4,125 nucleotides of DNA from a virus (lineage: Duplodnaviria > Heunggongvirae > Uroviricota > Caudoviricetes): the IMG/VR virus record IMGVR_UViG_2695420487_000011; one strand, written 5' to 3'. The notes beneath the pieces were generated by a model. The model saw only the letters and a program-made list of their open reading frames with translations, made no database searches and was not told the origin of the DNA. A program made the translations under genes and the position numbers. Of this stretch, positions 67 through 4,125 are shown piece after piece. Within the stretch, counting starts at the first letter, position 1, and each line of letters starts with the position of its first letter.

Positions 67-120
67 CCTGTTTACCTCTTTCTCAGGAAGTTTAGTCTCC
101 AGGATTCCCGGGGCGGTTCA
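1..120 (-). mobile_element. IS3-family insertion sequence (IS629/IS1203-like), terminal ~120 bp including one inverted-repeat end; element continues beyond the window start
   Basis: Reverse complement of 107-120 reads 5'-TGAACCGCCCCGGG..., the TG-initiated terminus typical of IS3-family ends. About 55 bp inside this end, a minus-strand ATG (complement of 64-66) opens an ORF reading MTKNTRFSPEVRQRAVRMVLES, which I recognise as the N-terminus of IS629/IS1203-type OrfA. Sid-like coding sequence begins immediately at 121. Confidence 0.7.
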
Positions 121-691
121 CGCTGATGACTGGCGCACAGCCTTTCGTGCAGCCGGTGGTGTCCTGAGCGACGAGCTGAAACAGCGCCACATTGAGCGCG
201 TGGCACGCCGGGAGCTGGTACAGGAATATGACAATCTGGCCGTGGTGCTGAATTTTGAACGTGAACGCCTGAAAGGGGCGTGTGACAGCACGGCCACCGC
301 CTACCGGAAGGCACATCATCACCTTCTGAGTCTGTATGCAGAGCATGAGCTGGAACACGCCCTGAATGAAACCTGTGAGGCGCTTGTCCGGGCAATGCAT
401 CTGAGTATCCTGGTACAGGAAAATCCGCTCGCCAACACCACCGGCCATCAGGGCTACGTCGCACCGGAAAAGGCTGTCATGCAGCAGGTGAAATCATCGC
501 TGGAACAGAAAATTAAACAGATGCAAATCAGCCTCACCGGCGAGCCGGTTCTCCGGCTGACCGGACTGTCAGCGGCAACACTCCCGCACATGGATTATGA
601 GGTGGCAGGCACACCGGCACAGCGCAAGGTGTGGCAGGACAAAATAGACCAGCAGGGAGCAGAGCTTAAGGCCAGAGGACTGCTGTCATGA
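121..691 (+). pseudogene. sid: sid-like capsid size determination (external scaffold) gene, 5'-truncated by the IS insertion; 3' portion of about 189 codons retained
   Basis: This frame is open from 32 to the TGA at 689-691, but 1-120 is IS sequence. There is no ATG/GTG/TTG in frame between 121 and the GTG at 200 that the ORF track uses as start (200..691, 163 aa). It sits immediately upstream of, and is translationally coupled to, delta in the conserved P4 order sid-delta-psu. P4 Sid is 244 aa as I recall, so roughly 55 N-terminal codons are missing. Confidence 0.65.
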
Positions 692-1188
692 TTTACTGCC
701 CGTCGTGTGGACATGTTGCTCACACCCGTCGCGCACATTTCATGGACGATGGCACCAAGATAATGATTGCACAGTGCCGGAATATTTATTGCTCTGCGAC
801 ATTTGAAGCGAGTGAAAGCTTTTTCTCTGACAGTAAAGATTCAGGAATGGAATACATTTCAGGCAAACAGAGATACCGCGATTCACTGACGTCGGCCTCC
901 GGCAGTATGAAACGCCCGAAAAGAATGCTTGTTACCGGATATTGTTGTCGGAGATGTAAAGGCCTTGCACTGTCAAGAACATCGCGGCGTCTGTCTCAGG
1001 AAGTCACCGAGCGTTTTTATGTGTGCACGGATCCGGGCTGTGGTCTGGTGTTTAAAACGCTTCAGACCATCACCCGCTTCATTGTCCGCCCGGTCACGCC
1101 GGACGAACTGGCAGAACGCCTGCATGAAAAACAGGAACTGCCGCCAGTACGGTTAAAAACACAATCATATTCGCTGCGTCTGGAATGA
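688..1188 (+). CDS. delta: Delta, P4-type late-gene transcriptional activator (fused tandem Ogr-like zinc-finger domains), 166 aa
   Basis: N-terminus MIYCPSCGHVAHTRR...CRNIYCSATFE is the Ogr/Delta Cys4 zinc-finger signature (CPxCxH...CxNxxCSATF). A second Cys4 unit follows (CCRRCKG...CTDPGCGLVF). The 166-aa length matches P4 Delta. Shine-Dalgarno AGAGGA at 674-679 lies 8 nt upstream, and the start overlaps the sid stop as ATGA (688-691). Confidence 0.92.
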   Translation: MIYCPSCGHVAHTRRAHFMDDGTKIMIAQCRNIYCSATFEASESFFSDSKDSGMEYISGKQRYRDSLTSASGSMKRPKRMLVTGYCCRRCKGLALSRTSRRLSQEVTERFYVCTDPGCGLVFKTLQTITRFIVRPVTPDELAERLHEKQELPPVRLKTQSYSLRLE

Positions 1189-1193
1189 GGGCT

Positions 1194-1209
1194 GCCGGTT
1201 AACACCGGC
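1194..1209 (+). other. Intercistronic stem-loop between delta and psu (GCCGGT-TAAC-ACCGGC)
   Basis: Perfect 6-bp inverted repeat with a 4-nt loop, 6 nt after the delta stop. There is no immediate T-run, so it is not a classical intrinsic terminator; possibly an RNA processing or attenuation structure. Confidence 0.35.
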
Positions 1210-1261
1210 CGTCGCCACACACCGTATTTTTATTCTTCAGCATGATGAGAAAGAGATAACG

Positions 1262-1834
1262 ATGGAAAGCACAGCCTTACAGCAGGCCTTTGACACCTGT
1301 CAGAATAACAAAGCAGCATGGCTGCAACGCAAAAATGAGCTGGCTGCGGCCGAACAGGAATATCTGCGGCTTCTGTCAGGAGAAGGCAGAAACGTCAGTC
1401 GCCTGGACGAATTACGCAATATTATCGAAGTCAGAAAATGGCAGGTGAATCAGGCCGCCGGTCGTTATATTCGTTCGCATGAAGCCGTTCAGCACATCAG
1501 CATCCGCGACCGGCTGAATGATTTTATGCAGCAGCACGGCACAGCACTGGCGGCGGCACTGGCACCGGAGCTGATGGGCTACAGTGATCTGACGGCCATT
1601 GCCCGAAACTGTGCCATACAGCGTGCCACAGATGCCCTGCGTGAAGCCCTCCTGTCCTGGCTTGCGAAGGGTGAAAAAATTAATTATTCCGCACAGGATA
1701 GCGACATTTTAACGACCATCGGATTCAGGCCTGACGCGGCTTCGGTGGATGACAGCCGTGAAAAATTCACCCCTGCGCAGAACATGATTTTTTCGCGTAA
1801 AAGTGCGCAACTGGCATCACGTCAGTCTGTGTAA
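1262..1834 (+). CDS. psu: Psu, polarity suppression protein (Rho antagonist / capsid decoration), 190 aa
   Basis: A 190-aa ORF immediately downstream of delta, matching the P4 sid-delta-psu order and the known length of Psu. A purine-rich SD (GAGAAAGAG) precedes the ATG. The ORF is followed by a hairpin and the cos site, as at the right end of the P4 genome. Confidence 0.8.
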   Translation: MESTALQQAFDTCQNNKAAWLQRKNELAAAEQEYLRLLSGEGRNVSRLDELRNIIEVRKWQVNQAAGRYIRSHEAVQHISIRDRLNDFMQQHGTALAAALAPELMGYSDLTAIARNCAIQRATDALREALLSWLAKGEKINYSAQDSDILTTIGFRPDAASVDDSREKFTPAQNMIFSRKSAQLASRQSV

Positions 1835-1867
1835 AATTCCCCGAAAATCCGCCCGTTTTTACTGAAA

Positions 1868-1898
1868 AAAGCCATGCATCGATAAGGTGCATGGCTTT
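1868..1898. terminator. Hairpin terminator-like structure downstream of psu (11-bp perfect stem, 9-nt loop)
   Basis: AAAGCCATGCA (1868-1878) pairs perfectly with TGCATGGCTTT (1888-1898). On the plus strand the stem is followed by an interrupted T-tract (TTTGCATGCGTTTCCC). On the minus strand it is followed by a clean T6 run (complement of A-run 1865-1870), so it may terminate in both directions. Confidence 0.45.
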
Positions 1899-1925
1899 GC
1901 ATGCGTTTCCCTGCCTCATTTTCTG

Positions 1926-1953
1926 CAGACCGCGCCATTCCCGGCGCGGTCTG
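1926..1953. repeat. Perfect 11-bp inverted repeat (CAGACCGCGCC / GGCGCGGTCTG) with 6-nt spacer in the cos-proximal region
   Basis: Read directly from the sequence. It lies about 45 bp upstream of the cohesive-end sequence; candidate terminase recognition or binding element, or structural element of the cos region. Confidence 0.5.
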
Positions 1954-1998
1954 AGCGTGTCAGTGCAACTGCATTAAAACCGCCCCGCAAAGCGGGCG

Positions 1999-2017
1999 GG
2001 CGAGGCGGGGAAAGCAC
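1999..2017 (+). other. cos site: 19-nt P2/P4-type cohesive-end sequence GGCGAGGCGGGGAAAGCAC
   Basis: Exact match to the 19-nt cohesive-end sequence that I recall as shared by P2, 186 and P4. It is positioned about 165 bp downstream of psu, as at the P4 right end, and is flanked by GC-rich palindromes (CCCGC-AAA-GCGGG at 1984-1996; GGTGCTCG 2033-2040 / CGAGCACC 2061-2068). Confidence 0.75.
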
Positions 2018-2071
2018 TGCGCGCCCCCGGTTGGTGCTCGTTACTAATGTTTTTTGCGCCCGAGCACCGTC

Positions 2072-2099
2072 GGGAAGGGGCTGGGGGGGATAGGGGAGG
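2072..2099 (+). repeat. G-run tract (GGG-aa-GGGG-ct-GGGGGGG-ata-GGGG-a-GG) fitting a G-quadruplex-forming pattern
   Basis: Four or more runs of at least 3 G separated by 2-3 nt, read directly. It sits just upstream of the point where composition changes from GC-rich backbone to AT-rich cargo. Confidence 0.4.
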
Positions 2100-2219
2100 T
2101 GCCTGACGTCGCGCGGTAATGTTGGTAAGTGTGCCGCTGATGGCTTCTGAGGGGAGTGGTAAATAGCCGCCTTTCGACGGTGTAGTGGGGAGAGTATTGC
2201 TTACAAACGTAATGAAATT

Positions 2220-2308
2220 GTTTGAGTAGCTAGGCTACTGCATAGGATTATTTTGTTCTGTTAATATATCCGTTAATATAGATAGATTGATCCAATTGAG
2301 TTTAAGGA
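2220..2308 (+). promoter_or_regulatory. Putative promoter/operator region of the 569-aa ORF
   Basis: AT-rich leader containing a 15-bp palindrome AGTAGC-TAG-GCTACT (2225-2239), a direct repeat GTTAATATA at 2260-2268 and 2272-2280 (12-bp periodicity), candidate -35 TTGTTC (2253-2258) with -10 TATAGA (2277-2282), and SD AAGGA at 2304-2308. Exact promoter elements cannot be fixed by eye. Confidence 0.3.
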
Positions 2309-4018
2309 ATGAGTATGTTTCAGATATCAGCTGGAGTGTTCTTTGATTTAGATAAAATAGAAAAACACGATGGCACATTTGTTTTTTATTCAAATGTTGA
2401 TGTGTCTTTCTCGGTGGAAAACACCTCCCCTCTTTTTAAAGCAAATAAAATAAGTCATGATGGTATAAACTGTTATGTGGTAAACTATACTCTCCTGACC
2501 GAAAAACCAGAACGAATTGAAGCTGGAGTCGTAGTTAGGGCTGGTGATGAGGATTATAGGCAACAATTTATTTTATTATGGGAATTCTATTTTGATTGTG
2601 TGGCTAGAGTAGAAAAAGAATCGGTTAAAAAAATATGTGCATTATCAAATTTTAATAAACATCACTCAAAAATTGCGCTTGAAGTTGCCCCATATTTAGT
2701 GGAGATTAATCGAAGAGTTTCATTTGATGATGTCTCTGGGTTTTCTGCTTTTATTAAAGATGTAGTGAATCTAAATAGATCTGCCTTTAAATCTTTAATG
2801 GCAGCGTTAAAAATAATTAGTGATTCAAAAGAATCATTGTCAACCAACTTTGACCTGACTTATTCCATGTTAGTCTATGCCTTGGAGTCTTTGTCTCAAA
2901 GAAATGATAACTATAAGTCTGATTGGGATGACTACGATCAAAAAACCAGAGGTGAATTAGAGTCTGTATTTGAGCATATGCCTGGTGAGGATGTTTGTAA
3001 AATTAAATCAATACTTATTGAAGGCAAACAATTCAGATTACAAAAAAGGTTCAAAGATTTTATACTGAAAAATCTTGAAGAAAATTATTTCAATGAAACA
3101 GAGAGATATCCAATCCGCTATAGCTTCCTTAGTAGAGCTTTAGATAATTTATACAAAATCAGGTCTTCTTTTGTCCATGAGCTTAAGCCACTTGATGCAA
3201 TGATCTCGAAAGCCTACAATCCTGTTGGTGATTGTCTGGTTCTTTTTGGCGAACCTCACTTCAGTTACTCTGGATTGCTTCGACTTCTTCGCCATGTGAT
3301 AATAAATTTTTGCCGTAAAAACTACAGTCAAAAAAGAGAGTCTGTTAATTGGGTGATGGAAACATCGGGTGTAATGGTTGCAGAGATATCTGCACAATAT
3401 TGGCTCTGGAATGCAGACGGATTTACAGCTAAAAGTATAGCGAAGTGGTTTAGTGAATACCTAAATATGTTAAATTTAGGCGAAGTCACTGATTTGCAGT
3501 CTATCATGGACAAAATTGAGATAATCTATGATCAATCCAAAAAAGAATATAAAAATGGGTTGTTGCATTTTTATTTCTTATATAACTTAATGCATAATGG
3601 AAATAAGGGTGAATGGCTTGAGTTTGCGAACAAGCGAAGTTCTATACTTGTTTGTGATATATATTGGTATTCATGCTCTCCATATTTATATAAATCATTT
3701 ACTAATGTTTCAAATGGTATTGCTGATATAAAAACATTGAGAAACTTTTTGTCTTGTTTTAACGAATATGATAAAAATAAATTTAAGCCAAATCGTTTAA
3801 ATCTCCCTGCAATGACCGAAGTAATTATGTTGGCTTGCGCAGCAAATTCATTCTTCAGAATTGGAATGTATCAAGACTATGTTTTAATGGGCAATAGAGC
3901 GATGAGAGAAATTGCTTCAGTAAAAGATGTATTTTATTATATAAAAGAACGATTAAGTAATTCACAACTTATTGAATTGGACGAGTGCTTGAGATTGTAT
4001 AGAAAAAAGGGGGGCTAA
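2309..4018 (+). CDS. Hypothetical protein, 569 aa, AT-rich foreign gene at the P4 psu/cos-proximal hotspot; candidate anti-phage defence protein with a single HEPN-like R-x4-H motif (R285...H290)
   Basis: Long uninterrupted ORF (1.7 kb) in about 30% GC DNA, where random stop codons would be frequent, so it is very likely real. SD AAGGA at 2304-2308 abuts the ATG at 2309; the in-frame ATG at 2315 has better 6-nt spacing and may be the true start (567 aa). No Walker A, PD-(D/E)xK or zinc-finger motif recognised. Motif KIRSSFVHELK (nt 3161-3178 encode R-S-S-F-V-H) fits the HEPN R-x4-H consensus. Family assignment not possible without a search. Confidence 0.85.
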   Translation: MSMFQISAGVFFDLDKIEKHDGTFVFYSNVDVSFSVENTSPLFKANKISHDGINCYVVNYTLLTEKPERIEAGVVVRAGDEDYRQQFILLWEFYFDCVARVEKESVKKICALSNFNKHHSKIALEVAPYLVEINRRVSFDDVSGFSAFIKDVVNLNRSAFKSLMAALKIISDSKESLSTNFDLTYSMLVYALESLSQRNDNYKSDWDDYDQKTRGELESVFEHMPGEDVCKIKSILIEGKQFRLQKRFKDFILKNLEENYFNETERYPIRYSFLSRALDNLYKIRSSFVHELKPLDAMISKAYNPVGDCLVLFGEPHFSYSGLLRLLRHVIINFCRKNYSQKRESVNWVMETSGVMVAEISAQYWLWNADGFTAKSIAKWFSEYLNMLNLGEVTDLQSIMDKIEIIYDQSKKEYKNGLLHFYFLYNLMHNGNKGEWLEFANKRSSILVCDIYWYSCSPYLYKSFTNVSNGIADIKTLRNFLSCFNEYDKNKFKPNRLNLPAMTEVIMLACAANSFFRIGMYQDYVLMGNRAMREIASVKDVFYYIKERLSNSQLIELDECLRLYRKKGG

Positions 4019-4125
4019 CCCATAAGCGCTAACTTAAGGGTTGTGGTATTACGCCTGATATGATTTAACGTGCCGATGAATTACTCTCACGATAACTGGT
4101 CAGCAATTCTGGCCCATATTGGTAA

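Follow-up and report, generated by a model that had tools for sequence, protein, structure and literature searches.

P4 relies on the terminase of P2, and the core of the cos signal is common to both phages (Rousset et al. 2022, PMC9122126). The P2/P4 packaging region is given as a 55-bp cos, credited by later papers to Ziermann & Calendar 1990. The literature further describes plasmids bearing P4 cos fragments that are packaged and transduced by P2/P4, as well as cosmids whose transduction rises by orders of magnitude when the cos flanks are longer. In the description of Rousset et al. (2022, PMC9122126), cos adjoins the psu-int hotspot, and the turnover of this hotspot was speculatively ascribed to recombination of satellites with their helpers at the cohesive end. 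The presence of cos beside the P4 hotspot is therefore already known, as part of a published and textbook model. In P4 itself (NC_001609, junction 11624/1), the gene order is sid-delta-psu, the 190-residue Psu is encoded by a gene that stops 164 bp short of the genome end, and cos follows directly downstream of psu, with gop/beta/cII on its other side. P2 (NC_001895) and other Peduoviridae carry the same 19-nt cohesive-end sequence, with TGCAT repeats equally far from the nick; in P2, old/tin lie to the left and the Q/P genes to the right. The lambda cos (cosQ-cosN-cosB) is of use as an analogy only: it also combines a nicking site with a one-sided flanking recognition sequence and with repeated short motifs that are candidate sites for the small terminase subunit, but shares no sequence similarity and has ends of 12 nt instead of 19 nt. 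Lambda packages from a concatemer, whereas P2 and P4 package from circular monomers.

The window analysed here, a stretch of 4125 bp, corresponds to the right-hand arm of a P4-like phage satellite with the organisation sid'-delta-psu-cos-cargo, and its gene order agrees with that of P4 and of the published hotspot. The capsid-size gene sid is represented by its 3' fragment (121-691, + strand), disrupted past codon ~54, where an IS3-family element is inserted at position 120, so that codons ~55 to 244 are left on the window side; in the IS-free relative L002, which is 100% identical, the intact gene spans locus positions 11838-12572, equivalent to -43 to 691 of the window. The two following genes are intact and of full length: delta (688-1188, + strand) codes for an Ogr/Delta zinc-finger transactivator of 166 residues (Pfam Ogr_Delta, E = 5.7e-22), equal in length to that of P4, and psu (1262-1834, + strand) for a polarity suppression and capsid decoration protein of 190 residues, as in P4 (Pfam Psu, E = 1.6e-88). 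At the right end, only the last sense codon and the stop of the satellite integrase gene (GGT TAG, 4015-4020, - strand) are found before a second insertion sequence, the remainder lying past it; in L002, int occupies locus positions 15896-17092 on the - strand, which places its stop at 4015-4017 of the window. Matches at 98.9-100% identity, over 120-4021 only, were obtained in fifteen complete E. coli genomes. The IS-free relatives that are identical at 100% over this interval are complete P4-like elements integrated at ssrA, such as that of NZ_CP144930, which adjoins ssrA and carries alpha primase, epsilon, alpA, sid, delta, psu, the cargo gene and int. With respect to the core set used to define P4-like satellites (psu, delta, sid, alpA, epsilon, alpha and int), the genes alpha, epsilon, alpA and int are located beyond the window edges and were found in these identical relatives. 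Together with the flanking Psu and Delta ORFs, these elements bear out the prophage context that the first-pass annotation had proposed. No Rfam family matched anywhere in the window. A 68-residue ORF (1887-2093), which corresponds to the RefSeq hypothetical protein WP_071587287 and is listed as a hotspot gene in the table of Rousset et al., overlaps both the cos cleavage site and the boundary between conserved and variable DNA; it has no family match and is most likely not a gene.

Both ends of the window consist of insertion sequences, and homology to IS-free P4-like elements begins at 120 and ends at 4021. The left end (1-120, - strand) is the terminal ~120 bp of the IS3-family element inserted into sid, which we take to resemble IS629/IS1203; bases 1-119 are 100% identical to 'IS3 family transposase' elements in thousands of E. 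coli records. The right end (4021-4125, + strand) is the left end of an IS186-like element (IS421-family IS4), with the transposase ATG at 4076, positioned where the stop codons of the cargo gene (TAA, 4016-4018) and of int (TAG, 4017-4015 on the - strand) overlap. The same IS186-like end, with its transposase annotated, is present in L003 (E. coli 64EVA), where the element measures 1339 bp and is accompanied by a 10-bp target duplication; an equivalent duplication here would keep the reading frames of cargo and int whole. As L003 likewise carries its IS186-like element between cargo and int, the GC-rich 3' end of int may be a preferred IS186 target. Neither IS junction occurs among complete E. 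coli genomes, the 32-mer across the sid/IS junction is absent from the GTDB representative genomes and from all fetched loci, and a look-up of the truncated Sid protein returned unrelated frameshifted sids only. In some other genomes (L091; H61/H62), the same cargo gene and int stay beside ssrA without psu and cos, an IS3-family transposase or ypjA-side DNA replaces the rest of the satellite, and the match to the window starts at 2086. These loci are cargo stranded without cos.

At the centre of the locus, the 19-nt cohesive-end sequence GGCGAGGCGGGGAAAGCAC occupies 1999-2017 on the + strand, exact and in a single copy, and was not encountered in any of 200 shuffles; its intactness, claimed in the first-pass annotation, is thereby confirmed. 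The top strand is expected to be nicked at 1998/1999 and the bottom strand, in a staggered manner, at 2017/2018, and the P4 record indeed stops at the base aligned to 1998 and restarts with the same 19-mer. The surrounding P2/P4 cos core of 55 bp (1970-2024, + strand), which reads TGCATTAAAACC...TGCGCGC, is the block common to P2 and P4. It is identical to P4 at 54 of 55 positions and to P2 at 53 of 55, each deviation from one of them being the state found in the other, and conservation reaches position 1964, extending the block to 61 bp. Over 1835-2024, an interval that follows the psu stop and reaches 7 bp beyond the cohesive end, the window differs from P4 at three of 190 positions, namely, 1909 (C in the window, T in P4), 1928 (G/A) and 2018 (T/C); the first two are the only substitutions in the 164 bp from the psu stop to cos (1835-1998 against P4 11461-11624, the final 164 bp of the P4 genome, 98.8% identity). 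All three columns are polymorphic among P4-like elements, and the T at 2018 is the state of P2 and of 96% of the P4-likes, P4 having C. The comparison with functional P4 cos suggested in the first-pass annotation as a way to refute its reading, by mutated flanking elements, thus does not refute it. Since the 55-bp P2/P4 cos core is complete, the cis packaging signal looks functional.

For a broader comparison, P4-like loci were drawn from IMG/VR both via Psu and via a degenerate cos pattern. The information profile was built on 79 P4-like and 73 P2-like distinct sequences, the positions set by the search pattern being invariant by construction; the columns that the pattern left free (-35 to -30 and +19 to +25) proved near-invariant in both classes. 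A contig labelled 'uncultured Clostridiales bacterium UMGS1151' (L226), which carries a P4 cos and a Psu 99% identical to that of E. coli, is almost certainly an Enterobacterial contaminant of that metagenome bin. To the right of the cohesive end, conservation stops abruptly: the seven bases past the 19-mer (TGCGCGC) are conserved in 73 Psu-linked loci and are then followed by 49 different right flanks. In a set of 70 distinct sequences of P4-like elements, identity relative to the window stays at 0.94 or above through 2024 and falls to 0.29, 0.07 and 0.09 at 2025-2027, and the same 2024/2025 edge was observed in the P4 class of the independent set (79 sequences). To the left, the picture was extended by satellites from Enterobacter, Tatumella, Citrobacter, Kluyvera and Photorhabdus, with Psu proteins 61-65% identical to that of the window. 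In these, the ~165 bp of intergenic DNA between psu and cos are 71-77% identical, compared with 69-75% for psu coding DNA, and the 100 bp right of cos are at the alignment background (51-59%). How far the required flank extends is deduced from secondary citations and from this conservation analysis.

The first-pass annotation had further described an 11-bp perfect inverted repeat before cos and smaller GC palindromes flanking it; all of these are present, and chance would not be expected to produce them. The former is a GC-rich dyad, CAGACCGCGCC/GGCGCGGTCTG (1926-1936/1943-1953, 6-nt gap), with a predicted stability of -15.3 kcal/mol as single-stranded DNA (1926-1953, z = -5.3); perfect 11-bp repeats with a loop of 3-20 nt never arose in 2000 dinucleotide shuffles of 1800-2320. 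The latter are the imperfect palindrome CCGCCCCGCAAAGCGGGCGG (1980-1999, z = -2.0), which abuts the nick, GCGCGC at 2019-2024, and an 8-bp inverted repeat GGTGCTCG/CGAGCACC (2033-2040/2061-2068, 20 nt apart, z = -2.2). As features of cos, these palindromes fared differently: the core of the dyad is conserved, whereas the 8-bp repeat lies in the variable cargo region. This repeat shows no conservation among P4-likes and is already imperfect (GGTGCCCG) in ATCC 8739, and since conservation among P4-likes stops at 2024, it is specific to the cargo variant and belongs to the exchangeable region, not to cos. The first-pass annotation, whose feature extends to 2068 on account of this repeat, thus overstated the role of the right-hand palindrome. 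Elements with the same cargo also vary by a 2-bp CC indel immediately after TGCGCGC (2025-2028; nine loci against three) and in the length of a G-run at 2082-2088, which has seven G in the window and eight in ATCC 8739; these are slippage-type polymorphisms at the hotspot boundary.

With regard to the GC dyad, only its core CGCC/GGCG (1933-1936/1943-1946) is conserved; it is common to most P2-like helpers of several genera, at an equal ungapped distance from the nick, and its ancestral form is GCGCCAG-NN-CTGGCGC. The complete 11-bp repeat is perfect in a minority of P4-likes. P4 has both this dyad and the second hairpin described below, the dyad with a single A.C mismatch at the position where G1928 makes the repeat of the window perfect. 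The outer pairs, on which perfection over 11 bp depends, are specific to the E. coli P4 clade, often mismatched, and paired in fewer than 50% of sequences, compared with 60-92% Watson-Crick pairing, mostly of one type, for the core pairs. A stem acting in RNA or DNA was considered for this dyad and rejected, given a single Watson-Crick type at most pairs, common mismatches and little covariation. The mismatches are mostly A.C on the + strand, which would be G.U wobbles in a - strand transcript; among about eight independent variants, some six are A.C-like and two of the opposite type, a bias that is not significant. P2 itself is devoid of the dyad, which therefore cannot be essential for terminase action. 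In our view, the dyad is an element of the extended cos region that is conserved at the level of sequence, possibly as a protein-binding site, and not a structure kept by compensatory change.

Further upstream, a block of TGCAT repeats (1868-1902) with flanking A/T runs overlaps a second perfect 11-bp inverted repeat, AAAGCCATGCA/TGCATGGCTTT (1868-1878/1888-1898; -12.8 kcal/mol, z = -4.1), which was absent from the first-pass annotation. The three TGCAT motifs of this block (at 1873, 1888 and 1898) are common to P2-like helpers of several genera, P2 included, and the motif positions -111 to -107 and -103 to -97 from cos are conserved in P4-likes and P2-likes. In total, five TGCA(T) motifs (1873-1902 and 1964-1974) are located at -126, -111, -101, -35 and -29 from the nick. 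Because these motifs are conserved at fixed nick distances in P4-like satellites, in P2-like helpers and in P2, the small terminase subunit is a candidate for binding to them. The block at 1868-1902 is probably a psu terminator and/or a protein-binding repeat, both assignments being putative.

Right of 2024, where P4 continues into gop/beta/cII, the window has a G-rich segment (2025-2200, + strand) at the start of the variable hotspot, followed by the cargo gene. Its composition (A.15, C.19, G.40, T.25) is close to the mean of the spacer that separates cos from the portal gene Q in P2-like phages (.16/.19/.38/.27) and far from that of P4-like right flanks (.32/.16/.19/.33), among which only three of 65 distinct sequences reach a G content of at least 0.35. 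The segment is collinear with a P2-like spacer at equal offsets from cos (score 51 versus 25 +/- 2.5, attained in 0 of 100 shuffles), the first 55 bp past cos also being in register, and retains at ~2164-2180 what resembles a remnant of the tQ terminator hairpin (AGCCGCCTTTCGACGG, compared with AGCCGCCTTTCGGCGG in the P2-like spacer). A short-word BLAST of the right flank alone against P2-like right flanks gave nothing at E <= 1e-3, and a Smith-Waterman comparison restricted to the first 90 nt was marginal (its score was attained in 3 of 200 shuffles), so that the 180-nt test alone is clear. This satellite variant thus seems to carry, directly adjoining cos, some 176 bp of non-coding DNA of the helper type, joined at ~2200 to an AT-rich cargo module. 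That it is a helper-phage spacer, left as the footprint of a helper-to-satellite recombination anchored at the cohesive end, would match the speculation of Rousset et al. (2022, PMC9122126) and is put forward as a doubtful proposal; it could alternatively be an ancestral remnant that most satellites have lost. A gene-based survey of 2026 concluded that P2 and P4 'almost never exchange defence genes', and a survey at the gene level would miss such an exchange since the transferred piece is non-coding.

The cargo gene (2315-4018, + strand), a single-gene candidate system of the 'HEPN-TPR' type, is situated between cos and the int stop and codes for a protein of 567 residues (569 when started at 2309). 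This protein corresponds to WP_000486481, is present in the hotspot table of Rousset et al. and recurs in exact form in over 1000 assembly blocks. Of ten places listed, nine have it in a complete P4-like context, the tenth being L091, without psu and cos. Rousset et al. (2022, PMC9122126) cloned the locus of E. coli ATCC 8739, which has the same architecture and 99.1% identity over 120-4021, under the name pFR83 'HEPN-TPR'; the cloned fragment starts in the 3' end of psu and includes the same cos and right flank, the latter with a 2-bp deletion, one substitution within the 8-bp repeat and one extra G. Unlike this copy, that of the window is bracketed by two insertion sequences. The protein contains an R-x4-H motif (RSSFVH, 3161-3178) and weakly matches the PADLOC Cas13-ApeA HEPN model over residues 150-275 (E = 7e-6); searches of Pfam, NCBIfam and PDB returned no sequence match. 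The search for homologues in phages yielded a single weak match, of 24.5% identity, in an unannotated gut phage, and no sign of an origin in P2-like phages. A role in defence is a reasonable guess. The first-pass annotation went further in speaking of defence cargo, which is not established: pFR83 appears in Table S2B under 'additional tested systems', the validated systems being in Table S2A (Rousset et al. 2022, PMC9122126). The gene should not be named a defence gene without evidence.

Taken together, these comparisons indicate that 1835-2024 is very probably the cos packaging site and left-hand recognition region of a P4-like satellite. Following excision and circularisation of the satellite, this region would be recognised by the terminase of a P2-family helper, which would nick at 1998/1999 and 2017/2018, generating 19-nt 5' overhangs, and the DNA would be packaged; in the resulting linear genome, the cargo gene would end up at the left end. 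The cis information on the psu side would comprise the TGCAT repeats and the GC-rich dyad as well as the 55-bp core, and would stop at TGCGCGC, 7 bp beyond the cohesive end, all DNA right of 2024 being exchangeable cargo. A different account of the palindromes would confine packaging to the 55-bp core and make them transcription signals, namely, terminators insulating the psu operon from the cargo. The hairpin at 1868-1898, directly after psu and flanked on both strands by an A-run and T-rich sequence, makes a terminator role plausible at that site, and the core palindrome at 1980-1999, followed by TTTTAAT, has a terminator-like score on the - strand. The absence of the GC dyad from P2, which is competent as a helper and packages its own DNA, and the frequent mismatches and seldom covarying pairs of this dyad also suit such an account. 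Yet the terminator scan made no call at 1868-1898, the window contains one terminator-like site for a shuffle mean of 1.0, nothing in the promoter and terminator scan exceeds shuffle expectation, and the GC dyad is not accompanied by a T-run on either strand. In P4-like satellites and P2-like helpers, which have unrelated genes there, the TGCAT repeats and the dyad core stand equally far from the nick, without gaps, so that a role linked to cos fits them better than one linked to a gene; the gain in cosmid transduction from longer cos flanks points in the same direction. We consider the transcription account unlikely and retain an extended recognition region.

By these comparisons, the packaging signal is inferred to be functional in this copy, which is a separate matter from the mobility of the element. 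As reported, the substrate of P2-type terminases is the excised covalently closed circular monomer, for which reason an integrated cos is insufficient for mobilisation; excision (int and AlpA/Vis) and replication (alpha) are required, and these genes lie outside the window. The statement of the first-pass annotation that an intact cos would allow packaging and mobilisation thus holds for the P4-type cos, intact by sequence, but overstated mobilisability, considering the two insertion sequences and the destroyed sid. One could go further and view cos as an intact-looking relic, persisting only for lack of time to decay, in an IS-broken, immobile 'domesticated' defective P4 whose cos and cargo are stably chromosomal. 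By splitting sid, the IS3-family element comes to lie between the late promoter, which precedes sid, and the genes delta and psu, and the IS186-like element separates cargo from int. The element would measure ~13.5 kb with both insertions and ~10.8 kb without, the latter being an estimate based on the crr and arm-type repeats of L002, against 11.6 kb for P4, with presumably ~1.3 kb contributed by the IS3-family element. The 2026 survey found transposable elements to be almost nonexistent in functional P2/P4 and described defective P4s keeping defence genes, and the L091 and H61/H62 loci show the same cargo with psu and cos deleted beside an IS. Against a relic, the stretch of 3902 bp that separates the two insertion sequences is 100% identical to complete elements free of IS, with no other decay visible, and the insertions must therefore be recent, while a 10-bp target duplication as in L003 would spare the frames of cargo and int. 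Furthermore, sid mutants of P4 are said to be packaged as multimers in P2-size heads, in which case the loss of sid need not block transfer. On this evidence, a relic is a possibility to be taken seriously, if on the whole a somewhat doubtful one, and a cos region that looks fit for packaging is the interpretation kept here.

The accepted account of the spread of P4-like satellites with P2-family helpers, and of the contents of the psu-int interval along with them, invokes the placement of cos by the hotspot. As this type of locus has already been catalogued and cloned, the significance of the present copy goes little beyond correct annotation, and, bracketed by insertion sequences, it may be stranded rather than mobile. 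As a corollary of the doubtful proposal of a helper footprint, the psu-side flank and 7 bp would suffice for the packaging of the satellite, and the hotspot boundary would therefore mark the edge of what the terminase requires. The helper-type spacer, for its part, represents a small but concrete lead on recombination at the cohesive end.
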